Shown here piece by piece: positions 9,411-52,134 of a DNA stretch of 60,252 bases. Position 1 is the stretch's first letter. Each line of letters starts with the position of its first letter. Source of the stretch: an uncultured Anaerolineales bacterium (GTDB lineage: Bacteria; Planctomycetota; Phycisphaerae; FEN-1346). The position numbers and the translations under genes are program-made. The stretch spans positions 1 to 60,252 of the forward strand of contig CAZNYC010000005.1 of assembly GCA_964577175.1 (NCBI GenBank). The letters are read 5' to 3'. Below the pieces are notes generated by a model. It was not told where the DNA came from, did not search any database, and saw nothing but the letters and a program-made list of their open reading frames with translations.

Positions 9411-9542
9411 ACGGGCACACCGGCCGCCATTGTGAATGCGGGTCGGCATCGCCGTGGCCGTGGCCTGTTGCCCGCCTATCCGCTTGCACCCCCCTCCCCC
9501 ATATGCTACCGTCTGCCGACGCCTCAGACGGAGCCCGGCACC

Positions 9543-36218: not shown

Positions 36219-37064
36219 ATGAGCATCAAGGCCCGATGGATCGCCGTCTGCCTGGTCGGTGCCGTTCTGGCCGCCGGGTCCCATGCCCCCGCCGAAGGGG
36301 CCGAGAAGCAGTCGCTTCTCGTCCAGGGGTCCACCACGGTCGGCCCGATTGGCGACGCCTTCGCCGAGGCGTTTATGCGCAAGTTCGCCGACGTCTCGGT
36401 CACCGTCAAGAAGACGGGGTCCGGCGACGGGGCCAAGGCGCTGCTGGACGGCCAGTGCGACGTGGCCAACATGAGCCGCTTCATGAAGGAGAAGGAGTAC
36501 GCCGCCGCCGTCGAGAAAGGGTTCCTGCCCGTGGCACACGTGGTGGCGATGGACGGCGTATGCGTGGTGGTGCACCCGTCGAACCCCGTCAAGGAACTGA
36601 CGACCGACCAGGTCCGCGCCATGTTCCAGGGCAAGGTCACGAACTGGAAGGACGTGGGCGGCGCAGACATGGAAATCGTCCTCTACAGCCGCGACACCTC
36701 CTCCGGCACTTACGAGACGTTTCACAACCTCGTGATGGCCAAAGAGAAGATGGGCTCCGGCGTCGAATACGTCGCCAGCAACCCCGACATGCACAAGCAC
36801 GTCTCGACGACGCAGGCGGCGGTCGGATACGTCGGGCTCGGCTTCGTGGACGAGAAGATCAAGGCGCTCAAGGTGAACGGCGTCCTGCCCACGAGCCGGA
36901 CGATCGCCTCCGGCACGTACCCCATCGCCCGGCCGCTGTTCATGTGGACGCGCGGCTTTCCGGTCCTGGGTTCGCTGACGCACGCCTTCGTGACGTTCCA
37001 CCTCAGCGAAGAGGGCCAGGAGATCATCGAGTCGAAGGGCTTCATCCCGGTCACGAGTTACTAA
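36219..37064 (+). CDS. pstS: Phosphate ABC transporter substrate-binding protein
   Basis: RBS GAAAGGAG. Signal peptide. LVQGSTTVGP, KKTGSGDGAKALLDGQCDVANMSR, YSRDTSSGTYETF. Confidence 0.85.
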   Translation: MSIKARWIAVCLVGAVLAAGSHAPAEGAEKQSLLVQGSTTVGPIGDAFAEAFMRKFADVSVTVKKTGSGDGAKALLDGQCDVANMSRFMKEKEYAAAVEKGFLPVAHVVAMDGVCVVVHPSNPVKELTTDQVRAMFQGKVTNWKDVGGADMEIVLYSRDTSSGTYETFHNLVMAKEKMGSGVEYVASNPDMHKHVSTTQAAVGYVGLGFVDEKIKALKVNGVLPTSRTIASGTYPIARPLFMWTRGFPVLGSLTHAFVTFHLSEEGQEIIESKGFIPVTSY

Positions 37065-37224
37065 GAGCCTATCCGAATACCCCCTCGTCGGCCCGAGGCC
37101 GAGCGAGGCGGCCGCAGGCAAGGAGGGCGAAGCAGGCAACCCGTCTCCGGGTTGGCGATGCAGCCCGACGCCGTCTGCGGTCGCCGCAGCCGGCCGAAGC
37201 CAGAGGGTGATTCGGATAGGCTCT
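37064..37224. mobile_element. MITE-like element, family B, long copy (161 bp) with 15-bp perfect terminal inverted repeats AGAGCCTATCCGAAT
   Basis: AGAGCCTATCCGAATACCCCCTC ... GAGGGTGATTCGGATAGGCTCT. Its first base is the last A of the pstS TAA stop codon. It carries about 83 bp of internal sequence absent from the copy at 14756. Confidence 0.75.
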
Positions 37225-37265
37225 AAGGCTGTTTTGTCAACTCTTGCCAACCGACAACGACTCGA

Positions 37266-37450
37266 GCGCGGTGGGCAGTCTTGCCCACCGCGCGGTGCCC
37301 ACGACTGGGCACCGCGCCACGGCCCTTGTGGATGATGGCGACGTTGACAACGTAGCCCTAAGCGGTCCGACAAGCGTTTTGCGCGGTGGTTCTCCGTAAC
37401 CACCGCGCAACAAGCGGGTGAACCGCGGCGGGTACGGAGACCCGCCGCGC
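37266..37450. repeat. Array of four REP-type hairpins: two 12-bp perfect stems (37266-37293, 37290-37317) and an inverted REP doublet (37381-37408, 37424-37450)
   Basis: GCGCGGTGGGCA-GTCT-TGCCCACCGCGC; GCGCGGTGCCCA-CGAC-TGGGCACCGCGC; GCGCGGTGG-TTCTCCGTAA-CCACCGCGC; CGCGGCGGG-TACGGAGA-CCCGCCGCG. Confidence 0.7.
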
Positions 37451-37509
37451 AAACACGTTTCAGGACTCATGTGGGACCTCGCAGGCCGGGTCCCGAGGAA
37501 CCGCAGCCC

Positions 37510-38532
37510 ATGAGCCGGACACCGGGCACCACAAGGCGACGCGAATCGGCGGCAGCGGTCGGGTTCGACCGGCCGCTTCTGCTGACCGCGCGCGAGGACC
37601 TGGTCGGCTACGCCAGCAGCCTGGCCGGCCGGTCGCTCCTGTTCCTCGTAGCCGCCTCCAGCGTGCTCGCGGTCTTTTTGATCTTCATCTTCATCACGCG
37701 CGAGGCGTTTCTGTTCTTCGTTCAGGGTGAGACGATCGGCGAGGCGTTCCGTTTCTTCCTGGAGCGCGCCGGCGAGGTCTTCGGCAGCGCGGCCTGGCAC
37801 CCGGAACACGAAGCGGAGCCGGAATTCGGCATGCTGGCGCTCATCGCCGGCTCGTTCTACGTCACGTTCGGGTCGGTCCTCATCGCCGTCCCGCTCGGCC
37901 TTCTGACGGCCGTGTGCCTGAGCGACATCTTTCCGTTCACGCTGCGGCAGGTGACGAAGCCGGTGGTGGAAGTTTTGGCGGCCATTCCGTCGGTGGCGTA
38001 CGGCTTCTTCGCGGTGATGGTCGTGAAGCCGTGGATGCAGCAGTACCTGGGTGTGCCGAGCGGGGCGAACGTGCTGAACGCTTCCATGATTCTGGCCGTC
38101 ATGGCCGTGCCCACCATCGTGAGCGTGTCGGAGGACGCCCTGACGGCCGTGGGGCGCCCGCTGCGCGAGGCCTCCTACGCCCTCGGCGCCACGCGGGCCG
38201 AAACGATGGTCCGCGTGGTCATCCCGGCGGCGCATAACGGCATCATCGCCGCCGTCATCCTGGGCATGATGCGGGCGGTGGGCGAAACGATGGTCGTGTG
38301 GATGGCGGCCGGCAACGCCACGCAGATTCCGCACCCGTGGTGGGACCTGACGGAGTCGGTCCGGACGATGACGGCGACCATCGCCCAGGAGATGGGGGAA
38401 ACGGCGCACGGGTCGGTGCACTACCATTCGCTCTTCACCATCGGGCTCATCCTGCTGGTCTTCACGTTCGTGCTGAACACGCTGACGGAGTTCCTCCTCA
38501 GCCGCATGCAATTCCGGGGGGCGAAGTCATGA
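37510..38532 (+). CDS. pstC: Phosphate ABC transporter permease PstC
   Basis: Multi-TM protein. EAA-type loop [25 protein letters not shown] at 37510 preceded by GAGGAA. A GTG at 37471 is an alternative start. Confidence 0.85.
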
Positions 38533-40178
38533 ACGTCCGCCTCCGCCGCCTGCTCAACCGCGGATTCAGCGGGGTCTCCGTCCTCTCGGTCCTCCTGCTG
38601 ACGGCTGCGCTGGTGGTGATTCTCGGGCCGATGCTTCTGGAGGGTGCGACCGCCGTCTTCTTCGACGGCACGGTCGAGTTCCGCCAGGTGCAACTGCAGC
38701 GGTTCGGGCGGGGCAACCCGGCGGCGGTAAAGCGCGAGACGGCCGCCACGGAGAAGGCACGCGAGCCCGTGTACCGTATTCTGGACCGGTTCGAGCAGGG
38801 CATCGACACCGCCCGGCTCGAAGACGACGCCCGCACCGTCTATCGGGAACTCGGCAAGCAGTTGAAACACCGCGACGACGTGACGCCGGAAGAGCGGCTC
38901 GAGATCCGCCGCTTCTTCCGCGGGCTCCGCAACACGCTCATCGACGCCTACGAGTCGGCGGACAAGGCCGACGCGCGGCGGCTGATCGGAGAAGTGCTCG
39001 CGCACGAGTCGGATCCGCGCCTCGCCGACACGGTGGCCGAACGCCTCTTCCGCATGGCGCGCGACTACCGCCGGCTGCTGGAGACGTTCGACCTCTCGCA
39101 GCGCGAGGAGTACGCCGCCGCCCTGGAGGAAGTGCAGGCAGCCGTCCGCAAGTTGCTGGGACCCCGTCCCGGAGAGCCGCTGCCGAAACTGGCCATGAAC
39201 CGCTACGGCGCCCACCGGATGGACCTGGTGGCGCGGTGGTCGGACGACCTCTTCTATGCGGAGAAGTGGGTACAGGAGGAGGAAGGCCGGCCGCTCGTCA
39301 AGAAACGGATTCCGCGGGAGGAGCAGTTCGCGGGAACGGAACTGGCCCCTCTCTTCCCGCTGTTCCGGGAGAACATCGACGAGATGTTCCTGCCGCGCTC
39401 TACCGTGTACTGGCAGTACTTTCTGGACGACAGCGTCCCGGGGCACTATTTCGGCGGTGTGGGCGAGGAGATTCTCGGCACGCTCACCATCACGGTGCTG
39501 GCGATTTTGTTCGCGTTTCCCCTGGGGCTGGTCTCGGCGGCGTACCTGGTCGAGGTGGCGGGCGACCACGTCGTCGTCCGGTTCATCCGGATGTGCATCA
39601 ACACGCTGGCCGGTGTGCCGAGCATCGTGTTCGGCCTGTTCGGCCTGGCGTTCTTCGTCATGGTGATCCAGGAGGCGAGCGACGGGGCGCTCAAGGGCCC
39701 CAGCGTCCTGGCGTGCGCGCTGACCGGGTCGGTACTCATTCTGCCGGTCGTCATCCGGGCGAGCGAGGAGGCGATCCGGGCGGTGCCGACCTCCTACAAG
39801 GAGGCGGCGCTGGCGCTGGGCGCGAGCCGGCTGCGGTGTTTCCTGACGGTCCAGTTGCCCGCCGCCCTCCCCGGCGTCCTGACGGGCGTCATCCTCAGCC
39901 TGAGCCGCGCCGCCGGCGAGACCGCGCCGTACCTGTTCGTCGGAGCCGCCGCCACGACGGATCCGCTGTGGCAATCCGCCGCCTGGGATTGGCCGTGGCA
40001 GCAGACCCAGATGCTCTCCTACGGCGCGTACGACCTGGCGATGAACGACCGCATCGCCGCCATGGTGCCCCATCAGCAGTGGGGCATGGTCATGACGCTG
40101 ATCCTCCTGACGCTGACCCTGAACATCCTCGCCATCGTGGTGAGGTGGCGCATCAGCCGAAAACTGCGCGGCACGTGA
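38529..40178 (+). CDS. pstA: Phosphate ABC transporter permease PstA (long form with a large insertion after TM1)
   Basis: The ATG at 38529 overlaps the pstC TGA (ATGA). [33 protein letters not shown] loop [22 protein letters not shown]. Confidence 0.85.
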
Positions 40179-40231
40179 GATTCGCCTTGAGTCCGAGCCG
40201 CGACTTGCTTAAAAACACACGAGGTTCCGAG

Positions 40232-41113
40232 ATGAGCGATATGCCGGAAACCACCGCCTCGACGCCGGAGACGATCGGCGGGACGACCGGGCGGCCCAGG
40301 GAGTCATCCATGCCGGCGATAGCCATTGATCACCCCCGGCGGAGGCCCCTCGAAGCCGGTGACCCCGTCGTCTGTTCCCGCGACTTCTGCCTCTATTACG
40401 GGCGCAAGACCGGCGTCAAGAACATCACGATGGACATCTACCCGAAGTCGGTCACCGCCATCATCGGGCCGAGCGGGTGCGGCAAGAGCACGTTCCTGCG
40501 AAGCATCAACCGCATGAACGACCTCATCCCGACCGCCCGGGCCGAAGGGGCCCTGTTCGTCGGGGGGACCAACATCTACGACAAGGCGGTCAACCTCGTC
40601 AACCTGCGGCAGCAGGTGGGGATGGTGTTTCAGCAGCCGAATCCCTTCCCGAAGAGCATCTACGACAACATTGCGTACGGCCCGCGGCTTCAGGGACATC
40701 GGAGCCGGGCGAACCTCGACGCCCTGGTCGAGCAGTGCCTCCGCAGCGCCGCCCTGTGGGACGAGGTGAAGGACGACCTCCGGAAGAGCGCCCTGGGCCT
40801 CTCCGGGGGGCAGCAGCAGCGGCTGTGCATCGCGCGGGCGCTGGCCACCGAACCGAAAGTGCTGCTCATGGACGAGCCCTGCTCGGCGCTCGACCCGATC
40901 GCCACCGGCCGCATCGAGGACCTCATCGGCCAACTCAAGGACACCTACACGATCGTCATCGTCACGCATAACATGCAGCAGGCCGCCCGCGTCAGCGAGC
41001 GGACGGCGTTTTTCTGCCTCGGCGACCTCATCGAGTACGGACCGACGGAGGAACTCTTCACCAAGCCCGGGGAGAAGCAGACCGAGGATTACATCACCGG
41101 CCGATTCGGGTAA
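40232..41113 (+). CDS. pstB: Phosphate ABC transporter ATP-binding protein
   Basis: Walker [10 protein letters not shown], signature [14 protein letters not shown], Walker [13 protein letters not shown], PstB-typical C-terminus [17 protein letters not shown] 7 nt upstream of the ATG. Confidence 0.9.
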
Positions 41114-41161
41114 GCGACGCCCCGGCCCCACCTCGCACGCGGCAGACGAAGGATCCATATC

Positions 41162-41833
41162 ATGTCCGAACTCCAACGGAACGTCGATGCGCTGATGCAG
41201 CAATTGGACCGGATGGGCCTCCGCGTGCAGCAGAGCGTACGCGACGCCCTCGACGCCGTCGAGGCCCGCGACGTCGAGGCCGGCCTGGCCGTCAGCCGGC
41301 GCGACAACGCCATCGACGCCGAAGAGGTGGCCATCGAAAAGGAGTGCGTCCGCCTGCTGGCCCTGTACCAGCCCACCGCGGTGGACCTGCGGAGCCTCTG
41401 CTTCGTCATCAAGGCCAACAACGACCTGGAACGCATCGCCGACAAGGCCGCCAGCATCGGCCGGCGCATCCGGCACCTCGTGGACGACGGCGTGAATCTG
41501 GCCACCTACCCCGAGTGGCGTGACCTCGTGGACCTCGTGACGGAGCGCCTGGACGAGACGCTGCGGACCATCAGTACGCGGGACTGCGCCTCGGCCGAAT
41601 CGCTCGTCACCTCTGACGTCGATGCCGAGGAGGCCTATCGCCGCATCGCCCGCCACATCATCGCGCGGGCACGCGAGGCGCCCGGCGGCGTCGACATGGC
41701 CGTCACCCTGGTGCTCCTCGTGCGGGCGGTCCACCGCATCGGCGAACTGTGCACCAACATCGCCGAGGACATCGTCTTCGTCTGCACGGGCGACATCGTC
41801 CGCCATGCCGACGCGCAGGAATCGGACGGTTAA
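41162..41833 (+). CDS. phoU: Phosphate signalling complex protein PhoU
   Basis: Two PhoU repeats (ANNDLERIADKA and HRIGELCTNIAEDI), 223 aa, directly downstream of pstB. Confidence 0.85.
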   Translation: MSELQRNVDALMQQLDRMGLRVQQSVRDALDAVEARDVEAGLAVSRRDNAIDAEEVAIEKECVRLLALYQPTAVDLRSLCFVIKANNDLERIADKAASIGRRIRHLVDDGVNLATYPEWRDLVDLVTERLDETLRTISTRDCASAESLVTSDVDAEEAYRRIARHIIARAREAPGGVDMAVTLVLLVRAVHRIGELCTNIAEDIVFVCTGDIVRHADAQESDG

Positions 41834-41968
41834 GACCCCGTTCGCATTGCTTTCCTCCGGGGCACACATACCTTGTAGTGCGCGTTCCCGGGGCGCCCTT
41901 TTCCACGTCCGCTTTCCCTCCGAGTCCCCCCGGCGCCGGACAAACGAAGAGTTAGCGCAAAAGCAATC

Positions 41969-42041
41969 GTTAACGGCCCCTTCAAACTTAACCGCCCGTT
42001 AATGCGGCGCGTATAAGGGCTTAACGGGCCCTTGCCAGAAT
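41969..42041 (+). promoter_or_regulatory. Candidate Pho boxes: GTTAACG at 41969, then CTTAACC, GTTAATG and CTTAACG at 41987, 41998 and 42020, followed by a candidate -10 CAGAAT at 42036-42041
   Basis: Same 7-mer type and same 11/22-bp phasing as upstream of pstS. Located 80-150 nt upstream of the porin ATG. Confidence 0.4.
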
Positions 42042-42121
42042 TCTAACGTGCTGCGGTCGCCGGCGCAAGCGAGCGGCGCTTGCCCCGACCCCGAATCGCC
42101 ACTCGTCCGAAAGGAACTGTC

Positions 42122-43570
42122 ATGGCAAGAATCAGGGGTGTCGTGGCCGTATTTGTGGGGGCCCTGCTCCTGGGGCCGGCGGCAGCGTGGGCGGCGGAGC
42201 CCTCGATGGCCGACCTCGAACGCACCGTCACGGCCCTGAAGACGCGCCTCCGAGACCAGGAACGCCGCATCGCCGAACTCGAGGACAACCAGGGCGACCA
42301 GGCCCACCGCCAGGAGATCCGCAAGATGGTCGACGAGGCGGTCGGCGATATCGGGCCCGACGACTTCCGCCTTTACTGGGATAACGGGATGCGGGCCAAG
42401 ACGGGCGACGGCCGCCTCAGTATGAAATTCGGCGGCCGGCTCATGTACGACTGGACGTGGATCGATGGCAACGACATCGAGAACGACTTCGCCGGCAGCG
42501 GCACCGACTTCGAGAACCTCGAAGACGGCAAGGAAATCCGCCGCGCCCGCCTGTACTGGCAAGGCGAGTGGAACAAGAAGATCAAGTTCAAGTGGCAGTA
42601 CGACTGGGCCGACAGCCCCGTCGTCAAGGACCTCTACCTCGAACTCAAGAAGTTGCCCATCGTCGGGAACCTCCGGATGGGCCATTTCAAGGAACCGTTC
42701 GGCCTCGAGGAACTCACCTCCTCCAAGTACGACACGTTCATCGAGCAGGCCTCGCCCAACGTCTTCGCGCCCAGCCGGAACGCCGGCTTCATGCTCCACG
42801 ACGCCGTCCTGGGCGACCGCGTGACGTGGGCCGCCGGCCTCTTCCAGGACACCTCCGACGACCCGGCGAACGACCAGTACGACGAGGGCCAGGCCATCCG
42901 CGACGGCGACGAGCAGTTCACGATGCGCCTCACGGCCCTGCCCTGGTACGCCCAGGAAGGCAAGCGGCTCATCCACACGGGCTTCGCGTACAGTTACCGC
43001 TCGCGCGAGCAGAACCTGCGGTTCCGCCAGCGGCCGGAGGTGCATCTCTCGCCGCGGTTCGTCAACACGGGCCGTCTCGGCATGGTCGACCACGAGAACC
43101 GCATCGGGGCGGAACTCGCCGGCGTGTTCGGACCGCTGCACTTCGCCGGCGAGTACATGACGTCCATCGTCCGGATGTCCGAGGACCTGAACCAGGACGA
43201 CCCCGCCTTCGACGGCTGGTACGTCCAGGTCGGCTACTTCCTGACCGGCGAGCACCGGCCCTACAAGAAGTCCAGCGGCCAGTTCGACCGCGTCAAGCCC
43301 AAGTCGAACTGGGACGAGGGCGGCACGGGCGCCTGGGAAATCGCCGGCCGCTACTCCCAACTCGACCTCACGGACAGCGGCCTGAACGGCGGCGTGATGG
43401 AAAACTACACCCTCGGCCTCAACTGGTACCTGAACCCGAACGTCCGCATCATGTGGAACTACATCCACACGCAGGTTGAGGACCTGGGCGGCCTGGGGGT
43501 CCCGGTGGCCTGGCGGGGCATCGATGACGACGCCGACCTGTTCCTCATGCGCCTCCAGGTCGACTTCTAA
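42122..43570 (+). CDS. Phosphate-selective porin O/P family outer membrane protein
   Basis: Signal peptide VVAVFVGALLLGPAAAWA. N-terminal coiled coil LERTVTALKTRLRDQERRIAELE. Beta-barrel-like alternating pattern ending LFLMRLQVDF. Sits next to the pst operon. RBS AAAGGAAC. Confidence 0.75.
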   Translation: MARIRGVVAVFVGALLLGPAAAWAAEPSMADLERTVTALKTRLRDQERRIAELEDNQGDQAHRQEIRKMVDEAVGDIGPDDFRLYWDNGMRAKTGDGRLSMKFGGRLMYDWTWIDGNDIENDFAGSGTDFENLEDGKEIRRARLYWQGEWNKKIKFKWQYDWADSPVVKDLYLELKKLPIVGNLRMGHFKEPFGLEELTSSKYDTFIEQASPNVFAPSRNAGFMLHDAVLGDRVTWAAGLFQDTSDDPANDQYDEGQAIRDGDEQFTMRLTALPWYAQEGKRLIHTGFAYSYRSREQNLRFRQRPEVHLSPRFVNTGRLGMVDHENRIGAELAGVFGPLHFAGEYMTSIVRMSEDLNQDDPAFDGWYVQVGYFLTGEHRPYKKSSGQFDRVKPKSNWDEGGTGAWEIAGRYSQLDLTDSGLNGGVMENYTLGLNWYLNPNVRIMWNYIHTQVEDLGGLGVPVAWRGIDDDADLFLMRLQVDF

Positions 43571-43961: not shown

Positions 43962-45350
43962 CTACTCCCGCCGGCCGCAGCACCGCTTGTACTTCTTCCC
44001 CGACCCGCAGGGGCACGGATCGTTCCGCCCGACCTTGCCCCCCGCCGCCGCGCCCGGCGCGGGCGCACGAGGAGCGGTTCGCCTCAGCATCGCACGGCCC
44101 TCCGCCGACGGGACCGGGGCGCCCCTGCCCTGCGGCCCGGCGGCCGACGCCCGGCGATGGGCTGCCGCGCCCGCGTCGGCCCGCGTCGGCGGCACGTCAC
44201 CCCGCCGGATGTACTCCGCAATGCGCCGCAGTTCCGGCAGCGCCTCGGCGAAGAACATCTTGTACGCCTCGCAGAAGTGGTTGACGCGCTGCGGGTCCCG
44301 CCCGATGGGCCGGTGATGCTTCGGGCACCCCGCCTGGCAGAACTCCAGGAACTCGCACTCCCGGCACGCCTCCGGCCGGTCCGTCTTGAGGCGAGCGAAC
44401 TCCTCCAGCAGCGGGTTCTTCAGCACCTCGACCAGCGGCGTCTCCACCAGGTTCCCCAGGTACCACTCCTTGAAGACGAAGTGGTCGCACGCGTACACGT
44501 CGCCGTTCCATTCCACGATGTGGGCGGCCGCGCACCGCTCCGAGTGCACGCACGTCGACGCCTTCCCGTACAGGATGACGTGCAGCGCGTCGTCGATGAA
44601 CCGGACGGAGACGCGGCCCACGTCGCGCTCGGCCCATTGCTCGAAGACCTCCAGCATCCACCGGCCGTATTGCTCCGCCGAGGGCGAGAAGTCCGTCGGC
44701 TCGTCCGTCCCCGGCACCCGTTCCAGGATGGGGATGAACTGCAGATAGGTGATGCCCCGGTTGACGAAGTACCGGTAGATGTTCCCGGCATGCGGGACGT
44801 TCGTGCGGTTGACCGTGACGAGAACGTTGAACTCGGCCTGGTGCCTCCGCAGCAGGTCCACGCCCCGCCACACGCGCTGCGACGTGGGCCGGCCCTGCCG
44901 GTCCAGGCGGTTCGCGTCGTGCACCTGCGGGGGGCCGTCGATGCTGACGCCCACGAGGAACTTGTGCTCCGCCAAAAACTGGGCCCACTCGTCGTCGAGC
45001 AGCGTGGCGTTCGTCTGGAGGCCGTTCGAGATCGTCTGCCCGTCCCGCCCGAACTCCTTCTGGTACGCCACGGCCCGGCGGAAGAAGTCCTTGCCGGCCA
45101 TCAGCGGTTCGCCGCCCTGCCACCCGAACTCGCACCGGACGGGCATCGCCTCCAGGTACTGGCGGGTGTACTGGCGGAGGACCTCGTCGGACATCTGAAA
45201 GCGCTGGACGCCCTCATATAGCGTCTCCGGCTTCATGGTATAGTAGCAGTAGCGGCAGTCGAGGTTGCACACCCCGCACACCGGCTTGCACATGATGTGG
45301 AACGGGCGGACGGCGTCGCCGACCGGTTTGTCCTCACTGACGTCGCTCAC
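43962..45350 (-). CDS. Radical SAM/SPASM maturase (anaerobic sulfatase-maturating-enzyme-like) with a C-terminal SEC-C metal-binding motif
   Basis: CNLDCRYCYY (CX3CX2C). SPASM cysteines CVHSERC..ACDHF..CRECEFLEFCQAGCPKH. C-terminal NDPCPCGSGKKYKRCCG. The GTG start at 45348-45350 overlaps the upstream TGA (GTGA). Confidence 0.8.
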   Translation of the reverse strand: MSDVSEDKPVGDAVRPFHIMCKPVCGVCNLDCRYCYYTMKPETLYEGVQRFQMSDEVLRQYTRQYLEAMPVRCEFGWQGGEPLMAGKDFFRRAVAYQKEFGRDGQTISNGLQTNATLLDDEWAQFLAEHKFLVGVSIDGPPQVHDANRLDRQGRPTSQRVWRGVDLLRRHQAEFNVLVTVNRTNVPHAGNIYRYFVNRGITYLQFIPILERVPGTDEPTDFSPSAEQYGRWMLEVFEQWAERDVGRVSVRFIDDALHVILYGKASTCVHSERCAAAHIVEWNGDVYACDHFVFKEWYLGNLVETPLVEVLKNPLLEEFARLKTDRPEACRECEFLEFCQAGCPKHHRPIGRDPQRVNHFCEAYKMFFAEALPELRRIAEYIRRGDVPPTRADAGAAAHRRASAAGPQGRGAPVPSAEGRAMLRRTAPRAPAPGAAAGGKVGRNDPCPCGSGKKYKRCCGRRE

Positions 45351-46219
45351 GACCGTACCTTCGGACGGATGGCGCTTTCGCGGATGACCAGGCTCCCCAC
45401 GTCGCACCCCAGGTGGCCGGCGATGACCGGGCACTTCGCCATCAGGATGAACCACACCGGCCGGGGGGCCTCGCTCAGCGTCTCGTAATTGCCCTGCCCC
45501 TTGGCGATCACGAGGTCCGCCGCCATGAACCGCTCGCGGAACGCCGCCGAGCACGTCTCCAGCAGCGTGCCGGGGGCGTCGGAGCCGTTCTCGACGATCT
45601 CCCACCGGCCCGCCAGGCCCGCCGCCGCGGCGTCCTCGGCCGTCGCGTCGTTGATGACCGGCACGCTCTTGACGCCGACGACCAGGTTCGCCGCGTCCAG
45701 GGTCTCGATGAGGACCCGGTCGAAGACGATCTCGCCGGCGTTATCCGCCAGGTACAGGACCTCGCCGGCGTCGGCGACCGCCTGCCGGAAGCCGTCCACG
45801 CCGCCGACGAGCGGGTCGCGGAGGGCCCGGTCGATGGTCTCCTGCACCGCCTCCTCGTTGACGGTGGCGCTGACGCCGAAGTCGATGATGTTGCCGGCGA
45901 TGGCGAGGCGCACGGCCGCCTCCAGCGGGTCGTCGGCCGCCTCCACGCGCCGCACCAGGTCCGGGTACAGGCCCATCGCGAGGCGGTTGAAGCGCTGCTT
46001 GACCTCGCGGTACGGGTCGGCGTTGCCGGTGGCCTCGCGGATGAGGCGGTGAATGTGCTGCCCCATCGCCGGCGGGGCCATGGCCATATCCATTTCGCTC
46101 GCGGCTCGCAGCACGTGACGAAGCACGTCGGCATGCACCGCCTCGTCGTCGGTGACGAAGCGCGCGGCCTCCAGCGTCTGGCGGACGAAGCACGGCACGC
46201 AGTCGAGGTACGTTCGCAT
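45347..46219 (-). CDS. DUF89 family protein (ARMT1-like damage-control phosphatase fold)
   Basis: MRTYLDCVPCFVRQTLEAARF N-terminus, NADPYREVKQRFN, AIAGNIIDFG, YLADNAGEIVFD, and AKGQGNYETL near the C-terminus. Confidence 0.7.
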   Translation of the reverse strand: MRTYLDCVPCFVRQTLEAARFVTDDEAVHADVLRHVLRAASEMDMAMAPPAMGQHIHRLIREATGNADPYREVKQRFNRLAMGLYPDLVRRVEAADDPLEAAVRLAIAGNIIDFGVSATVNEEAVQETIDRALRDPLVGGVDGFRQAVADAGEVLYLADNAGEIVFDRVLIETLDAANLVVGVKSVPVINDATAEDAAAAGLAGRWEIVENGSDAPGTLLETCSAAFRERFMAADLVIAKGQGNYETLSEAPRPVWFILMAKCPVIAGHLGCDVGSLVIRESAIRPKVRS

Positions 46220-46374: not shown

Positions 46375-46393
46375 ACGAGTTAGCGTTGTAGTG

Positions 46394-47053
46394 CTAGGCG
46401 TCGACGAGTTTCCCGTCGGCCATGTGGACGATGCGGCCGGCGTAGTCGGCGGCCCGCACGTCGTGGGTGACGAGCAGGACCGCCCCGCCGCCGTCCGTGA
46501 AGTCCGCCAGGTACTTCAGCACCGTGTCGCCGCTCGCGGGGTCGAGGTTGCCGGTGGGTTCGTCGGCGAGGAGGACGCGCGGCTCGTTGAGCATGGCCCG
46601 CGCCAGGGCCACCCGCTGCCGCTCGCCCGTACTGAGTTCGGCCGGCACGTGGTCGAGGCGGGGCGCCAGGCCCACGTGCTCGAGCAGCGCCATGGCCCGG
46701 TCCCGCGCGCCGTCCGACGGCCGCGCCAGCGACGCCGACAGCACGTTGTCCAGCACCGTGAGGTACGGCATGAGGTGGAACCGCTGGAAGACGAATCCGA
46801 TGGCATCGGCCCGCATGCGGGCCCGCTCCTCGGGCGCGAGGGCGTACGGGTCGTGACCGTCGAGCGTTACGCTGCCCGTGTCCGGCCGGAGCAGGCCGCC
46901 GGCCACGAGAAGCAGCGTCGTCTTGCCGCACCCGCTCGGGCCCTGGACGGACACGAATTCGCCGGGCTCGACGGTGAGGGTAACGTCGTCGACGGCGGGA
47001 ACGGCCTCGGTCTTGCCGCGGTAGGTCTTGGAGACGTTCTGGAGACGGACCAC
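46394..47053 (-). CDS. ABC transporter ATP-binding protein (MacB/LolD/FtsE-like)
   Basis: Walker [10 protein letters not shown], signature LSTGERQRV, Walker [13 protein letters not shown]-loop VTHD. Start set to the GTG at 47051-47053, 10 nt after GAGGAG. The ORF track start at 47071 (GTG) would overlap the permease stop. Confidence 0.85.
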
Positions 47054-47060
47054 GCTGGGG

Positions 47061-48395
47061 TTACTCCTCACTGAGGATCAGGGCGGGGTCTTCCTGGGCG
47101 GCCAAAAGCGCCGGCACGAGGCTCGCCGCCGCCGACAGCAGCGGCGCCAGCAGCAGCGCCCCGGCGAGGAGGCCCGGTCCGAACAGGGCGGCCGCCCCGG
47201 CGGGGCCGCTCGCCAGCAGGTCGCCGCCCATCTCGCGCGTGTCCCACGCCACCGCCAGGACAAATCCCAAGAGGTAGCCGGCGACGGCGCCCAGGAGGCC
47301 GACCATGACGGCCCGTCCGAGGAAGATGCCGACGACCTGCCTGCCGCGGACGCCCATCGCGCGCAGGATGCCGATCTCGGTGCGCCGGGCTCGCACGTTC
47401 CCGAGGGCCATCAGCCCCACCCACACGATGCAGCCGACGACCACGAGCGGGACGACCCAGGTGGCGAGGGCCTCGCGTTCGGACCGCAGGCTGTCGCGGC
47501 CGGCCTGGTCGACGGCGAGAAACTGCTGGGCACGATTGCCGGCCGCGGCGCGCGTGGCGCGCCGGATGGCGGCTTCACGTTCCATCGTGAGCACCTGCAC
47601 GTTCGGCAGGATTTCCCGAACCAGGTTCTCGAGTTCTTCCGCCGAGTAGAGTTCGCGCACCCCGAACCGCCCGTCGGGCAGGTGTTGCACGCACAGGCAG
47701 CCCAAGGCCAGGATGGCATGGATCTTGCCCGGACACTCGAGCAACTGCTGCGCCTCGGCCAAGGGGATCCAGACCGTGATGTCGTCGTCGCTTCCCCGCA
47801 ACTCGTGAATCCGGCTGACGGTGAACTCCCGGCCGAGAAGCGTCGCTTTCTGGCCGACCTTCAAGCCGGCCTGCTCGGCCACCACCGCGCCGACAATCAT
47901 GCTGCCCTCCGGCAGGGTGTCGATCATCGGCTTCTTGGGGTTGAAGTGCGACAGGGGCACCTCGCCGCGGGTACCCATAAGGACAATCGGCAGGTCTTTC
48001 TCGGGCCAGCGCATTCGCTGCTGGACGACGGGCAGCAGGTGCCGCACGACCAGTTTCTGTGACTGGGCCAGTTTTTCGACCACCTCTTCGTCCATCATGT
48101 GGGCCGGCTGCTGCGTGCTCAGGAACTCCGCCCGGTCTTCCTTCTCGTCGAGGATCAACACGTTGTATCCGAGTTCCAGCATGATGCGTCGGGCGTCATC
48201 CGTCAGATGGAAACCCACCTCGCCGACCTTCTCGGACCGCGCCTCTTCAATGCGTGCCGCCCGCAGGTCGTAGCCCCTGAGCAAAGTCAGGACGGCCACG
48301 ACGGACCCGACGGCCACCAGGACCGCCACGGCCGCCAGGGCGAAGTTCAGCCGACGGTACGTGATTTCACGGGCAATCAGACGCCAGATGCTCAT
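47061..48395 (-). CDS. ABC transporter permease, FtsX/MacB type: TM1, extracytoplasmic domain of about 300 aa, then three C-terminal TMs
   Basis: MSIWRLIAREITYRRLNFALAAVAVLVAV. FtsX-domain motif RTEIGILRAMGVRGRQV. ATG at 48393-48395, 1 nt after the upstream stop. Confidence 0.8.
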   Translation of the reverse strand: MSIWRLIAREITYRRLNFALAAVAVLVAVGSVVAVLTLLRGYDLRAARIEEARSEKVGEVGFHLTDDARRIMLELGYNVLILDEKEDRAEFLSTQQPAHMMDEEVVEKLAQSQKLVVRHLLPVVQQRMRWPEKDLPIVLMGTRGEVPLSHFNPKKPMIDTLPEGSMIVGAVVAEQAGLKVGQKATLLGREFTVSRIHELRGSDDDITVWIPLAEAQQLLECPGKIHAILALGCLCVQHLPDGRFGVRELYSAEELENLVREILPNVQVLTMEREAAIRRATRAAAGNRAQQFLAVDQAGRDSLRSEREALATWVVPLVVVGCIVWVGLMALGNVRARRTEIGILRAMGVRGRQVVGIFLGRAVMVGLLGAVAGYLLGFVLAVAWDTREMGGDLLASGPAGAAALFGPGLLAGALLLAPLLSAAASLVPALLAAQEDPALILSEE

Positions 48396-48396
48396 C

Positions 48397-49617
48397 TCAG
48401 CCCTCGGCTCGCTTCCCACGTTTCCAGATGACCAGGGAGGCGACGGCCACGACGGCCAACGCCCCCAGTACCGTCACACCCAGAAGCATCATCCAACTCA
48501 GGTTGAACGTCTGCGTCCCGAGCGTTCCGGCCTTCCGGACGTCGTGTGGCGCTTGCTCTGCAGCCTCTTCCGGCCCCGGCTCTGCCTTCTTGCCCTCGGT
48601 TTCGCCCTCGCCCGACTGCTCCGCCTCGGCCGCCTGGGCAAACTTCGCCAGGCCCGTCAGCGGCGGGGGCTCGACCTCCGGAATGGCGGACTCCTCGCCC
48701 ATCAGCGCGGCGTCCCACTGCACGTCCATCAGCATGTCCACGCCGGGGTTCTGGTACTTGACGGTGCACGAACACGGGCCGGAGACGAACCCGCACACCT
48801 CCTCGATGTTCAGTTTGCTGATGCCCTCGCCCACCAGGGCACACAGGACGCGGCCGCGGCCGAAGATGGGGAACGCCATCGGCCCCGTCTCCTCCTTGAG
48901 GCCGGGCTCGCAGCCGAGGAGCATCTCGCGGAACGCCGCCTCCTCCGGGTCGTCGCGCGAGAGCGGCACGATGGAGAAGGCGATCTTCAGGTCCGGCGCG
49001 CCCTCCGTGTCGTAGACGGGGTCGCCCCACACGCCGCCGGGCGGCGCGGGCGGCTCGATGAGTTCCTCCATCCGCGCCAGGTGCTTCTCCAGGCGCTGGC
49101 GGGCCGCCTGGTCCTGCTCGGCGTCGCCGCTCTCGAGGAAGACGAAGACGGTCGTCTCGCCCTCCAGGAGGCGCTTGGCCACCTTCCGCCGCGTCGGAGA
49201 ATCCAGCAGGTTGTCCGCCGCCTCCGGACCGAGCGGCCCCGACCACGTGTCGATCGGAATGCCGAACATCCGCGGGTACCGGACCACCAGCCACGGGGTC
49301 TCGGCCTTCTCGGCGTGGGCCTCCCAGACCTTGGCGGCCTGGCCCTCGGGCTCGCCCTGCGACAGGTCCGTCATCCAGAGGTCCAGGACGCCGTCGCGGC
49401 GTTCCTCCAGCGACGCCTCGCGCAGCGGCTGGAGCGCCTCCTTCTGGGCCTCCGTCAGATCCCCGCGATGGAACACGTGGATCTCGTACGGGTCCACCAT
49501 CCATCGTTCGAGCGCATAGCGATACACCGGGACGCTACACGCCTCTGCGACGCCGGCGGCGAGCATGAGCACCGCCGCCAATACGCATCCAACCAGCACG
49601 TTATGGCCAAGACGCAT
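48397..49617 (-). CDS. Hypothetical exported protein anchored by a C-terminal TM, with conserved-looking mature N-terminus CSVPVYRYALERW and a Cys cluster
   Basis: Signal VLVGCVLAAVLMLAAGVAEA then CSVPVYRYALERW. Cluster C-x15-C-x6-C-x-C (CALVGEGISKLNIEEVCGFVSGPCSC). Acidic linker, TM WMMLLGVTVLGALAVVAVASLVIW, then KRGKR. ATG at 49615-49617 preceded by GGGGAG. First gene of the ABC operon. Confidence 0.65.
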   Translation of the reverse strand: MRLGHNVLVGCVLAAVLMLAAGVAEACSVPVYRYALERWMVDPYEIHVFHRGDLTEAQKEALQPLREASLEERRDGVLDLWMTDLSQGEPEGQAAKVWEAHAEKAETPWLVVRYPRMFGIPIDTWSGPLGPEAADNLLDSPTRRKVAKRLLEGETTVFVFLESGDAEQDQAARQRLEKHLARMEELIEPPAPPGGVWGDPVYDTEGAPDLKIAFSIVPLSRDDPEEAAFREMLLGCEPGLKEETGPMAFPIFGRGRVLCALVGEGISKLNIEEVCGFVSGPCSCTVKYQNPGVDMLMDVQWDAALMGEESAIPEVEPPPLTGLAKFAQAAEAEQSGEGETEGKKAEPGPEEAAEQAPHDVRKAGTLGTQTFNLSWMMLLGVTVLGALAVVAVASLVIWKRGKRAEG

Positions 49618-49804
49618 GATCTGTGTCACTCCCCTGTGCGGAACTCCCGCAATCTAATCAGGCGATTATACGCGCCGTTTGGGGGAATTTAAACCGCTTT
49701 TCCCCCAGCGGGGGCCGCGCGAATCCGTGGCCTGCCGCGATCCCCGGAAGGTCGTCGCGCCGACCGCCGCGCCCAGCCAAACGCCGCTTGACGCGGAGGC
49801 GAAA

Positions 49805-50770
49805 ATGAGACATAGTAACGGTATGCTCAGACGGACCGCCCGCGAGGATCGCCGTACCGTGAACGCGCACGGGACCGCAACGCTGCTGGTCGCCCAACCC
49901 GGCTCGGAGATGGCCGACGCCCTGGCCGAGGGGCTCCGCGCCGCCGGCCGACCGGTCACCGTCGTCACGAATCCGCTCGATTCGGTGGCGGAGGCGGTGC
50001 GCGCCGACCCGCCCCTTAACTGCCTGGTGGTGGGGGTGGATTTCTTCGACGACGAGGCCTTCCGCCTCCTGCCCCTCTTCCGGCGCGAGTGGCCCGACAC
50101 GACGATCGTGGCGTACCACGGGCGAGGCTTCGAGCACAAGGGCCGCATCGCCGGCCTCGTCGGGGCGGACGTGGTCCTGTCGCGCCCGGCCCACCTGCTG
50201 GAGTTCCTGGGCGGGCGGAAGGCCGCCGGCCGGACGGTGCCGCAGAACGGTCCGTCGCAGCCGACGACGCAGGAGGCGCCGGCGCCCGCACGCGTCACCG
50301 AACGGTCCGCCCGGACGCCGGCGTCGCCCGTTGCGGCGCCCGAACCTCCTTCGGCGGCCCCCGCGCCGTCGGCGGCGCAGGAAACGACGCCGCCACCCGC
50401 CCCCCCGGCAGCGCCGGAGCCTCAGCCGTCCGCGCCTGCGCCCGAACCTCCGCCGTCGGCCGAAGCGGCGCTATCGGGCCCCCCGTCGCGGGAGACCGCC
50501 GACGGGGGCTCGCCCGCCGCGCCGACCCGTCAGGCAAGGCCCGCGCGGAAAGGGCCGCCCGCACCCCCGCCCGCCCCTGCACCGGAGGCGCCTGATGGAG
50601 AGGCCTCCGCGGCGTCCGACCCCGACGCCACCCCCTTCGCACCGCCGCCGGCGGGAGAGACCGATCCCCCCGACGACGACCAGGCCCTGACCGGCGGGCA
50701 AGTCATCGGCACCGTGGAACTGACCGACGAGGAACTGCGCATCCTGCTCGGCGAGGACGACGATACGTGA
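49805..50770 (+). CDS. Pseudo-receiver (REC-like) protein with a long Pro/Ala-rich region and an acidic C-terminus
   Basis: RBS GGAGG 5 nt upstream of the ATG. REC-like fold pattern TLLVAQPG.., NCLVVGVDFFDDE, TIVAYHG, GADVVLSRP, with the conserved Asp pair and Lys replaced. About 150 aa of PAPEPPPSA-type low complexity. Confidence 0.6.
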   Translation: MRHSNGMLRRTAREDRRTVNAHGTATLLVAQPGSEMADALAEGLRAAGRPVTVVTNPLDSVAEAVRADPPLNCLVVGVDFFDDEAFRLLPLFRREWPDTTIVAYHGRGFEHKGRIAGLVGADVVLSRPAHLLEFLGGRKAAGRTVPQNGPSQPTTQEAPAPARVTERSARTPASPVAAPEPPSAAPAPSAAQETTPPPAPPAAPEPQPSAPAPEPPPSAEAALSGPPSRETADGGSPAAPTRQARPARKGPPAPPPAPAPEAPDGEASAASDPDATPFAPPPAGETDPPDDDQALTGGQVIGTVELTDEELRILLGEDDDT

Positions 50771-52134
50771 CACACGCGACCACCCATCCCGATGTCGCCG
50801 TCCGACCCGGCGTGGTCTGCGTGTGCAGGGACGCCGGCGTCTCGGCCCTGCTCGAGCCGCTCGCCGCCGGCGGCCGGGTGTATCGTTCCGCGGCGGACGC
50901 CCTCCTGGCCGCGACGCGAGAGCCGCCGGCCGCCGTCGTCCTGGCGCTGGATCCGACCGAGGCGTCCATCGGCCCGGCGGTCGATGCGTTCCGGGGCCTG
51001 GCCCTCGGCGCCCCCGTATATGCCCTGGTGGAGGCGGCGGAAGAGCCCCTCGCCCGTTCGCTTCGCGGGGCCGGGCTGTCGGACTATTTCGTCCTGCCGG
51101 GCGGCATCCACCGGCTGGCGCGGGCCCTGTCGCCGGAACCGGCGGAACCCGAGCCCCCTCCGCCGCCTTCGGCCGAGGCCGCCGAGCCGCCTGAGGCGGA
51201 ACCGGCGGCGCCGGCCTCCGCCGGCCACCTGTTCGACGCCGCATGCCGCCTGGGGGACCTTGCGATGGCGGCGCCCGCCACGCTCTTCCGGAAGGGCACG
51301 CGCGTCATCCTCAAGACCGTGCGAGCGGAGCGCGGCTGCGCATTCCTCTGGTCCGAGAAGGACGAGCGGATGGACCTGTCGCTGACCATCGGCGGCAACG
51401 AGACCCTCGGGGCCGCCCACCCGGACCCCGTCCGTGCCGCCGCCACCCGGTGCTTTCGGACCGGTGAGCCGCTCCGGCTTCCACCCGGCACCGCCGACAC
51501 ACCGCCCGGCGGGCTGGTCGCCGTGCCGGTCGGCGACGACGAGGCGGCCGTCGGCGTCATCTGCCTGTCGCCGTCGTCGGCCCCGGAGGCCCAGGGCGTT
51601 GGGGATGACGCGCTCGGGGCATTGGCCCGTACGCTGGCCCGGCTGTATCGCGCCGCCGCCCGGCGTGAGGAATACGCCCGCCTGGCGCACCGCGACGTCG
51701 AGACCGGCCTCCTGAAGGCAAACCCGTTCCTGGCGTACGTGGACGGTCGCATCGCCGAGGCCCGGGACCGCCGGACGGAGTTGGCCCTGGTGCTCCTGGA
51801 ACCGGAGGCAAGCGTGGCCGCCCGAACCGCGGACAGCCCGGCCCGCCTGGGTCTGGCCGTCCGGGGCGCGCTGGCGCGCGGCTGGGAGGGGGGCCGGCTG
51901 GAGACCGCCCGCTACGCCGTGGCCCTGCCGGCCGAGACGCCGGCGGCTGCCTCCGGTGATGCTGACCCCGCCGAAGCCGCCGCACAGCGGCTCGCCGGCG
52001 CGGGGCCCCGGACCCATCCGGACCTTTCCCTGCGGACGGCGGTGGCACGGTTCCCGCACGACGGCACCAGCGCGCAGTCGCTCGTGTCGGCGGCCGAGGC
52101 GCGGCTTCAGGCGGCCACCGGTGACGCGCGGTAG
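50767..52134 (+). CDS. REC-like + GAF + degenerate GGDEF domain protein
   Basis: The GTG start overlaps the upstream TGA (GTGA). REC-like VVLALDPTE..GLSDYFVLP. GAF-like AFLWSEKDERMDLSL..GLVAVPVGDDEAAVGVICLS. GGDEF-like AHRDVETGLLKANPF..ELALVLLEPE..GGRLETARYAVAL..LSLRTAVARFPHDG..AAEARLQAA, without a GG(D/E)EF signature. Confidence 0.6.
   Translation: MTHATTHPDVAVRPGVVCVCRDAGVSALLEPLAAGGRVYRSAADALLAATREPPAAVVLALDPTEASIGPAVDAFRGLALGAPVYALVEAAEEPLARSLRGAGLSDYFVLPGGIHRLARALSPEPAEPEPPPPPSAEAAEPPEAEPAAPASAGHLFDAACRLGDLAMAAPATLFRKGTRVILKTVRAERGCAFLWSEKDERMDLSLTIGGNETLGAAHPDPVRAAATRCFRTGEPLRLPPGTADTPPGGLVAVPVGDDEAAVGVICLSPSSAPEAQGVGDDALGALARTLARLYRAAARREEYARLAHRDVETGLLKANPFLAYVDGRIAEARDRRTELALVLLEPEASVAARTADSPARLGLAVRGALARGWEGGRLETARYAVALPAETPAAASGDADPAEAAAQRLAGAGPRTHPDLSLRTAVARFPHDGTSAQSLVSAAEARLQAATGDAR

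Follow-up and report, generated by a model that had tools for sequence, protein, structure and literature searches.

The contig CAZNYC010000005.1 of an uncultured bacterium assigned to the Phycisphaerae was analysed over positions 1 to 60,252, and this whole stretch of 60,252 nucleotides is referred to as the window in the following. At 46394-49693 its minus strand carries three tightly packed genes, which encode a C-tail-anchored periplasmic protein (gene 1), an FtsX-type permease and an ATP-binding cassette (ABC) ATPase, in a sequence context of approximately 70% G+C. The TGA of gene 1 is separated from the FtsX ATG at 48395 by the single base G, and the TAA of the FtsX gene is followed, after a gap of 7 nt, by the GTG at 47053 that starts the ATPase; the initial annotation of this DNA had given these distances as 1 nt and within 8 nt. 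A consensus scan of the operon region returned three promoter-like sites, where 0.2 were expected from shuffled sequences. Gene 1, FtsX and ATPase form one operon behind a single promoter-like site, and the three-gene operon described in the initial annotation is borne out by the junctions, by this site and by the recurrent gene order in other genomes. The features of the operon are the following (aa, amino acids; TM, transmembrane; pLDDT, predicted local distance difference test of AlphaFold2):

49665..49693, minus strand: putative sigma-70-like promoter with TTTAAA, a 17-nt spacer and TATAAT, agreeing at 10/12 positions, a consensus match only
49629..49634, minus strand: Shine-Dalgarno-like GGGGAG, 11 nt 5' of the ATG at 49617
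48397..49617, minus strand: gene 1, precursor of 406 aa of a C-tail-anchored periplasmic protein, with ATG at 49617 and TGA at 48397-48399
49540..49617, minus strand: Sec-type signal peptide of gene 1, aa 1-26, hydrophobic and ending in A-E-A
49537..49539, minus strand: codon of Cys27, invariant in 314/314 ungapped sequences, the predicted first residue of the mature protein
48658..49539, minus strand: periplasmic domain of gene 1, aa 27-320, with two predicted tandem thioredoxin-like folds without CxxC
48766..48774, minus strand: C282-S-C284 (CxC) of gene 1, each Cys in 318/318 sequences
48508..48657, minus strand: flexible tether of gene 1, aa 321-370, about 50 residues rich in E, A, G and P, as judged from composition and from pLDDT values down to 41
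48400..48507, minus strand: C-terminal TM anchor and basic tail of gene 1, aa 371-406, as judged from hydropathy
47061..48395, minus strand: gene 2, FtsX/MacB-type permease of 444 aa, with stop TAA at 47061-47063
47691..47699, minus strand: C233-L-C235 (CxC) in the periplasmic domain of the permease, motif (I/V)xAILAL-x-C-x-C
46394..47053, minus strand: gene 3, ABC ATPase of 219 aa from GTG 47053 (225 aa from GTG 47071)

Gene 1 was initially annotated as a protein of 406 aa with a signal peptide followed by CSVPVYRYALERW, an acidic linker, one C-terminal TM segment and a basic tail, and all of these are reproduced from the translation. The sequence directly after the signal peptide reads C27-SVPVYRYALERW. 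The TM helix comprises aa 371-401 with the tail WKRGKRAEG and is kept in 314 of 318 homologues, and the length of the tether preceding it varies widely within the family. The initial annotation had placed the protein in an unknown family, which agrees with the database searches: it has no Pfam or NCBIfam match at E<=1, and the profile of a 52-homologue alignment gave only a chance match against the PDB (E=2.3). A word-indexed search of a database of 5.8 billion proteins found at least 626 homologues, the named ones of which are all called 'hypothetical', and an exhaustive profile search yielded 3,912 clusters (50% identity), of which 2,560 lie below 1e-30. The family is carried by at least 537 species-representative genomes, and the named carriers belong mainly to the Planctomycetota, Verrucomicrobiota and Kiritimatiellae, and also to the Latescibacterota, Sumerlaeota, Poribacteria and Hydrogenedentes. 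In full-text literature searches no description of the family or of its gene cluster was found, the relevant results being general papers on type VII ABC proteins and a preprint on the CXC of MauE. Gene 1 belongs to a large, previously undescribed family that is mostly found in the Planctomycetes-Verrucomicrobia-Chlamydiae (PVC) group. Six contigs with related clusters (L008, L010, L013, L014, L037, L066) come from metagenome-assembled genomes labelled Anaerolineales, Akkermansia muciniphila or Bifidobacterium, yet have a PVC-type cluster aboard, and these look like binning or labelling errors.

Gene 1 contains cysteines at positions 11, 27, 236, 259, 275, 282 and 284. Residue conservation was counted over 318 family members, and by this count only Cys27, C282 and C284 are universally conserved. 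Cys27 heads the most conserved motif of the family, and the N-terminal pattern CSVPV(F/Y)RYALERW, the conservation of which the initial annotation had suggested to check, is kept as C-[SN]-V-P-V-[FY]-R-Y-A-L-E-R-W. The C-x15-C-x6-C-x-C cluster that had been noticed in the same annotation is literally present (C259-C275-C282-C284), but only its last two cysteines are conserved, as C275 is found in 67%, C259 in 15% and C236 in 7% of the sequences. Besides the three cysteines, R143 and E226 (318/318 each), K287 (317/318) and D294 (316/318) are conserved, and absolute conservation, as in C27, R143, E226 and K287, suggests a functional site. In a homologue of 647 aa (P0122) the periplasmic domain is tandemly duplicated, and its second copy has GLGYDED in place of GPCSC; as the CxC is gone from this copy and so is the context of the N-terminal Cys, the two features were lost together. 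Mean-field direct coupling analysis on the 318 homologues was used to look for a contact between Cys27 and the CxC, and its top pairs were artefacts of indels and gaps, so that the result was discarded.

The position of Cys27 directly after the signal peptide brings up the reading of gene 1 as a lipoprotein, in which Cys27 would be acylated and a Lol-like extraction system dedicated to the protein would take it as cargo. In addition to the position of this cysteine, LolC and LolE are the closest Foldseek matches of the permease. However, only 14 of 277 homologues are compatible with a lipobox, position -2 being mostly W, R, L, Q, S, F or E, and the residues after Cys27 are the most conserved and best folded ones of the protein, unlike a lipoprotein tether. 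Moreover, gene 1 already possesses a C-terminal TM anchor, and the equivalog scores for LolC/E and LolD are far below their cut-offs. The lipoprotein reading of Cys27 was rejected on the lipobox statistics and is considered highly improbable. The -3/-1 rule of signal peptidase I is satisfied before Cys27 in 274 of 277 homologues, and a Tat-like motif is found in 4 of 318. As to the question raised initially of where the cleavage site lies relative to the cysteine, gene 1 is exported by the Sec system and most likely processed by signal peptidase I immediately upstream of Cys27, and the mature protein is therefore predicted to start with a cysteine with free amine.

The AlphaFold2 model of gene 1, computed from the alignment, has a mean pLDDT of 87.2 and shows the order beta-alpha-beta-alpha-beta-beta-alpha twice (residues 44-138 and 156-279), followed by the disordered linker and the TM helix. 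In Foldseek searches against the PDB it matched protein disulfide isomerase (PDI)-like proteins, ERp57 bb', the protein disulfide oxidoreductase (PDO) of P. furiosus and calsequestrin with E of about 1e-4, as well as single thioredoxin/KaiB domains at probability 0.99. According to the model, the periplasmic part is composed of two thioredoxin-like domains, and this tandem fold, which is not LolA-like, bears out the earlier statement that the partner of the ABC proteins is no typical membrane fusion protein and no lipoprotein carrier. With members of the thioredoxin superfamily (PDI b-b', DsbA/DsbC/TlpA and PDO, and CopG with its CxCC) gene 1 shares two consecutive thioredoxin folds and a Pro at the cis-Pro loops (P108 in 316/318, P246 in at least 90%); it differs in the placement of its cysteines, which are found at the mature N-terminus and as CxC after the last helix of domain 2, and sequence similarity to this superfamily is not detectable. 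None of the 52 aligned sequences has a Cys at the canonical site of helix alpha-1, and beta-1 is followed by H50-R-G-D-L in domain 1 and by E162-S-G-D-A in domain 2. Judged from the model, gene 1 has a thioredoxin fold, yet it lacks the CxxC that defines thiol-disulfide oxidoreductases.

A thiol-disulfide relay is the main rival to the explanation favoured below. The CxC motifs would then be redox-active disulfides, disulfides or electrons would be exchanged among gene 1, FtsX and clients, the ABC proteins would hold, unfold or release the client, and the module would be a dedicated machine for oxidative folding, isomerisation or reduction. Redox-active CxC sites are known from Mia40 (CPC) and from the tail of Erv2 (CGC), and in Foldseek gene 1 matched protein disulfide isomerases and oxidoreductases best. 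In MauE, a substitute of DsbB, a flexible periplasmic loop carries a conserved CXC that was shown experimentally to be a functional, redox-active thiol site (10.64898/2026.03.05.709764). MauE differs from the module in being a DsbB/VKOR-like, quinone-linked four-helix protein that has neither an ABC motor nor a tri-cysteine partner of thioredoxin fold with an N-terminal Cys. A beta-propeller protein with four or five invariant cysteines, which recurs beside gene 1 in other genomes, could be the client. Against a disulfide relay, neither domain of gene 1 has a CxxC at helix alpha-1, the number of invariant cysteines is odd (three), which is unusual for a pure shuttle, and no quinone-binding membrane protein, DsbD/CcdA-like gene or cytochrome recurs in the neighbourhood. 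In addition, known disulfide relays need no ATP-driven mechanotransmission, and such a relay leaves the ModABC-like importer and MoaD/MoeB neighbours described below unexplained. All in all, we regard it as possible, although rather unlikely.

The permease matches FtsX (PF02687) in Pfam with 55.7 bits (cut-off 25.5) and MacB_PCD (PF12704) with 27.7 bits (cut-off 27). Hydropathy places its TM segments at 14-44, 307-336, 353-385 and 398-434, TM1 and TM2 being separated by a periplasmic domain of some 260 aa, and in the AlphaFold2 model (pLDDT 82.8) the stalk helices 15-72 and 272-332 flank a mixed alpha/beta domain (79-270). Foldseek returned probability 1.0 solely for type VII ABC permeases, i.e., LolE/LolC, MacB, HrtB, those of the Spr0694-0695 type, YbbP, YtrF and BceB. 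Pfam, hydropathy, AlphaFold2 and Foldseek agree with the initial assignment as an FtsX-type, type VII permease with a large extracytoplasmic domain. The ATPase (Pfam ABC_tran, 114 bits) has an intact Walker A (GPSGCGKT), the signature-like LSTGE, a Walker B LLADEP with its Glu and the H-loop. The NCBIfam equivalogs of ATPases, i.e., LolD, DarD, FtsE and DevA-like, all scored below cut-off, and the equivalogs for Lol, MacB, FtsEX and DevCBA were all far below theirs. FtsX and the ATPase are members of the type VII ABC proteins and belong to a distinct clade outside the named systems.

The periplasmic domain of the permease carries a CxC of its own. It is present in 42 of 44 FtsX genes located after a gene 1 homologue; both syntenic FtsX genes without it are separated from gene 1 by 1.6 kb and seem to represent another paralogue. 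The CxC is found in all of the 120 best database homologues (120/120), and together with H119 it is invariant in a database alignment of 49 sequences (43-73% identity). In the model it lies at a kink between strands 227-232 and 234-238, with a local pLDDT of about 68 next to flanking blocks above 90, and it is probably situated in the C-terminal half of the membrane-proximal Porter subdomain. In gene 1, too, the CxC loop is modelled with less confidence than the rest of its domain (pLDDT about 77), and the low values at both loops would fit sites that need a ligand or a partner. To our knowledge, an invariant periplasmic CxC of the permease is a feature of none of the characterised type VII systems. 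In 40 of 44 syntenic FtsX orthologues a Cys is also found at one or both of positions 31 (TM1, ~48303-48305) and 322 (TM2, ~47430-47432), the window having S31 and C322. As a DsbD-like electron path these two positions are not supported, neither of them being conserved alone.

The module resembles the type VII systems LolCDE-LolA, MacAB-TolC, FtsEX-EnvC, YbbAP-TesA and HrtBA in its four-helix FtsX permease with long stalks and a Porter/Sabre-type domain, in its separate LolD/FtsE-like ATPase and in a dedicated extracytoplasmic partner that is encoded alongside. In YbbAP-TesA a periplasmic enzyme is reported to be the partner of a type VII ABC protein (PMC12646458). Here, in contrast, the partner is an unrelated, C-tail-anchored protein with a predicted tandem thioredoxin fold, and no gene of the membrane fusion protein, outer-membrane factor, LolA or EnvC type is found in the module. 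Compared with MacAB-TolC, the ATPase domain is encoded by a separate gene and not fused, no gene of the HlyD/membrane fusion protein type was found in or beside the operon, and the permease scores 20.6 bits against MacB NF007826 (cut-off 966). For LolCDE the scores are 39.5 against lolCE TIGR02212 (cut-off 362.45) and 192.4 against LolD TIGR02211 (cut-off 307.75), and the predicted fold of gene 1 is thioredoxin-like and not a LolA half-barrel. For FtsEX they are 179.2 against FtsE TIGR02673 (cut-off 264.85) and 15.5 against FtsX_Gpos (cut-off 225), and no coiled-coil or LytM match, as would be expected of an FtsEX-type partner, was found in gene 1. Since the defining features of MacAB-TolC, LolCDE and FtsEX were checked and are lacking here, the module lies outside these families.

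The comparison set consisted of 86 loci from other organisms. In 61 of the 73 loci with sufficient sequence, gene 1 has FtsX downstream of it in the same orientation, and FtsX and the ATPase gene both come after it in 52 of 67; in the reverse direction, look-ups of three distant FtsX homologues found a gene 1 homologue directly upstream each time (3/3). The synteny of the three genes, which the initial annotation had named as a point to check, is thus kept across independent loci of different species. A protein of approximately 1,200-1,400 aa with a PQQ_2-type beta-propeller and a C-terminal malectin domain is encoded within 6 kb of gene 1 in 26 of 40 loci. It has invariant C1006, C1044 and C1064-x-C1066 (numbering of locus L003), and C136 is conserved in 96%. 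In locus L003 its gene lies directly before gene 1, and in the FtsX-less loci L028, L041, L048 and L070 directly after it. An extracytoplasmic CxC is invariant in gene 1, in FtsX and in this frequent third partner. The propeller protein also contains a weak Rossmann/methyltransferase-like stretch (aa 474-570). Its similarity to tetrathionate hydrolase is at the level of the repeats only, and a relationship with that enzyme was rejected.

A ModABC-like importer is encoded in 15 of 40 loci. Its binding protein is membrane-tethered and has two ModA-like domains (124 bits against NCBIfam modA, cut-off 62.5; SBP_bac_11-type) with conserved C54, C318 and C337, its permease is ModB/TIGR01581-like, and the ATPase is a short one resembling WtpC. 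Downstream of the importer, seven loci have a ThiF/MoeB-family gene, and a 92-aa MoaD-family protein ending in PISGG is encoded in four; this context of importer and MoaD/MoeB is found in many loci of the Planctomycetaceae, Pirellulales and Verrucomicrobiota. The related loci resemble ModABC with MoaD-MoeB in that a modA-type binding protein above cut-off, a ModB/TIGR01581-type permease and MoaD/MoeB genes stand in line, and they differ in that the binding protein is a tethered tandem duplicate with cysteines and the ATPase lacks the C-terminal regulatory domain. Ser12 and Tyr170, which we take to be the molybdate ligands of E. coli ModA, appear as Gly and Leu in this binding protein. The cysteines of the ModB-like permease were not used as a thiophilic translocation path, C201 being in the cytoplasmic EAA loop and the others being conserved at 82-91%. 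The positions of these elements in the related loci are the following:

L003:4196-7999: propeller/malectin gene, with orthologues in L001, L010, L028, L041, L087, L089 and others
L036:11277-15896, L044:7258-11741, L066:10064-13824 and L003:9190-12274: module, then tandem-ModA, ModB, ATPase and MoaD-MoeB elements

The presence of a malectin carbohydrate-binding domain in a frequent neighbour would suit an explanation according to which gene 1 is a non-catalytic adaptor, i.e., a structural partner or regulator like EnvC or LolA, its cysteines make up either a structural disulfide or a site for zinc, and the substrate is a protein, lipid or glycan on which the periplasmic domain of FtsX and the propeller with its malectin domain act. 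The long flexible linker of gene 1 would suit docking, and the characterised type VII ABC systems are all reported to act via a periplasmic partner protein (PMC5985334, PMC12646458). However, it is hard to see the invariant CxC in three co-located extracytoplasmic proteins as independent structural features, the absolutely conserved C27, R143, E226 and K287 look functional, and in gene 1 as in FtsX the CxC loop has the lowest confidence within a domain that is otherwise predicted well. A purely structural role for gene 1 is for us distinctly unlikely.

Another way to read the MacB-family fold of the permease is detoxification, in which toxic thiophilic Cu, Hg, Cd or As would be caught in the periplasm and expelled, maybe via a TolC-like protein as in MacAB-TolC. 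CxC and tri-cysteine sites suit soft toxic metals, and a TolC-like gene is present in the window. This gene had been reported in the initial annotation as an orphan at 10.7 kb, and an OEP-family gene indeed exists at 10707-12557, but it lies at a distance of 36 kb from the operon and has no link to it. The operon is adjoined by no membrane fusion protein gene, no outer-membrane factor or adaptor was found among the recurrent neighbour clusters of the 86 loci, and no regulator of the MerR, ArsR, CsoR or CopRS type was found among the scanned neighbours. The neighbours that do recur are an importer and cofactor-type sulfur-carrier genes. Because the TolC-like gene is so distant and no outer-membrane factor or adaptor recurs, the reading as an efflux duct is without support, and we consider detoxification by efflux to be quite improbable.

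The best reading of the module is, in our view, an ATP-driven cysteine-thiolate relay for a thiophilic ligand, a tentative proposal from sequence that is slightly more apt to fail than to hold. Binding and hydrolysis of ATP would move the periplasmic domains of FtsX, and the ligand would pass between the CxC thiolates of FtsX and a Cys27/CxC site of the tethered gene 1 protein, in a hand-off step that would be either loading or stripping. In those genomes that encode the propeller/malectin protein of approximately 1,300 aa, the relay would extend to its CxC. With the importer and MoaD/MoeB genes that stand in line with it in other genomes, the module would be part of an acquisition route rather than an efflux pump. 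Type VII ABC proteins perform mechanical work in the periplasm and do not carry substrates across the membrane, and the motor is proposed to drive the hand-over of the ligand because these proteins transmit ATP-driven movements to periplasmic domains. A precedent for an ABC-driven periplasmic metal hand-off is NosDFY-NosL, in which the ABC cycle hands a thiophilic cofactor between periplasmic proteins and the final client, N2O reductase, is a beta-propeller; NosY is an ABC-2-type permease, NosD a beta-helix and NosL a lipoprotein. The likeness is a functional analogy only, based on the propeller with conserved Cys and His that recurs beside the module. No Pfam or NCBIfam match of the NosDFY-NosL kind was found in the three proteins, no relationship of gene 1 to these proteins in sequence or fold was found, the permease here is of the FtsX type, and the propeller is PQQ_2/BamB-like with malectin and not N2O reductase.

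Regarding the ligand, the S3/S4 sites of ArsR and CadC are built from a CxC and one further Cys, in CCS, Cox11 and CopG a CxC is the binding site of Cu(I), and the 1,2-aminothiol of an N-terminal Cys is a good chelator. By analogy, three cysteines of which the N-terminal one offers a 1,2-aminothiol are suited to soft metals or metalloids. An element of the Mo/W type or another thiophilic, oxyanion-forming element is the sole ligand class with genomic support, and the Mo/W-type class is favoured because ModABC-like and MoaD/MoeB neighbours are found elsewhere; the substrate is putative. The range of 'metal, redox or protein handling' given in the initial annotation still holds and is narrowed by the CxC of FtsX and by the extended cluster in other genomes.

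Several points weigh against a thiolate relay. The idea of a metal or metalloid is based on motif chemistry and gene neighbourhood, and Cys27, C282 and C284 as one site, as well as the reach of this site to the CxC of FtsX, are putative. The propeller, the ModABC-like importer and MoaD/MoeB were sought in the 60-kb window and are absent, leaving the three-gene core only; the link to Mo/W, which holds in only approximately 40% of the loci, is therefore indirect for this window. In 12 of 67 loci gene 1 has no adjacent FtsX, and H50 of gene 1 is conserved in 89% only. Unless it is reduced or sulfidated, molybdate normally accepts no thiol ligand at neutral pH, cysteines of periplasmic proteins are in many cases plain disulfides, and thioredoxin folds and CxC motifs also suit a redox function.

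The thiolate relay could be part of a larger pathway. In this extension the module would belong to an unrecognised route of trace-element acquisition, widespread in the PVC group and in phyla close to it, in which a chain of CxC sites (propeller, gene 1, FtsX) catches a thiophilic Mo/W or soft element, the ABC proteins power the hand-offs, and the element is fed to the Cys-bearing tandem-ModA importer that is coupled to MoaD/MoeB. In this complete form the scheme is unlikely. If it is true, such a trace-element chain would give mechanotransmission ABC proteins a task not known for them so far and would include a new type of metal site on a mature N-terminal Cys.

Directly downstream of the operon, at 43962-46219 on the minus strand, are genes for an ARMT1-like damage-control phosphatase and for a radical SAM/SPASM/SEC-C protein with an anSME-like architecture. 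A GTG-started open reading frame (ORF) at 43962-45605 overlaps the ARMT1-like gene, and its true start is probably further downstream. Both genes were rejected as parts of the system, as they co-occur with it only in the closest relatives from the Phycisphaerae (loci L005 and L007). On the plus strand at 49679-52134, divergent from gene 1, are two Pro/Ala-rich genes without Pfam match, the first of which appears by eye to be receiver-domain-like and the second to be degenerate GGDEF-like, and which are kept upstream of gene 1 in L005, L007 and L008. This gene pair could encode local regulators. Long antisense ORFs overlap nearly all real genes of the window, e.g., at 46380-46931 and 48361-49692; these are expected because of the G+C content of about 70%, and the real frames have a G+C fraction at third codon positions (GC3) above 0.85.

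Elsewhere in the window, a complete phosphate-uptake cluster, which is unrelated to the operon, is encoded at 36219-43570, with a PstS-like PBP_like_2 protein, two BPD_transp_1 permeases, an ABC ATPase at ~40.4-41.0 kb, PhoU and a phosphate-selective porin O/P. A giant ORF of 4,197 aa at 18224-30817 on the plus strand has weak PA14 and dockerin matches and probably encodes a cell-surface protein. The TolC-like OEP gene is adjoined by a WYL/WCX helix-turn-helix regulator (9432-10514), and large ORFs without Pfam match flank this pair at 7971-9410, 12905-14740 and 15048-16928.

Measured against the initial annotation, the family of gene 1 is uncharacterised, its synteny with the ABC genes is kept and three of its cysteines are invariant. 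As a type VII ABC system, the module has a partner without precedent, and its chemistry is probably one of thiolates. Known jobs of type VII ABC proteins are lipoprotein release, TolC efflux, activation of cell-wall hydrolases, extraction of heme or lipids and peptide sensing. To this repertoire the module would add a new class of partner and probably a new chemistry, i.e., thiolate hand-off or redox, in phyla the envelope biology of which is poorly understood.

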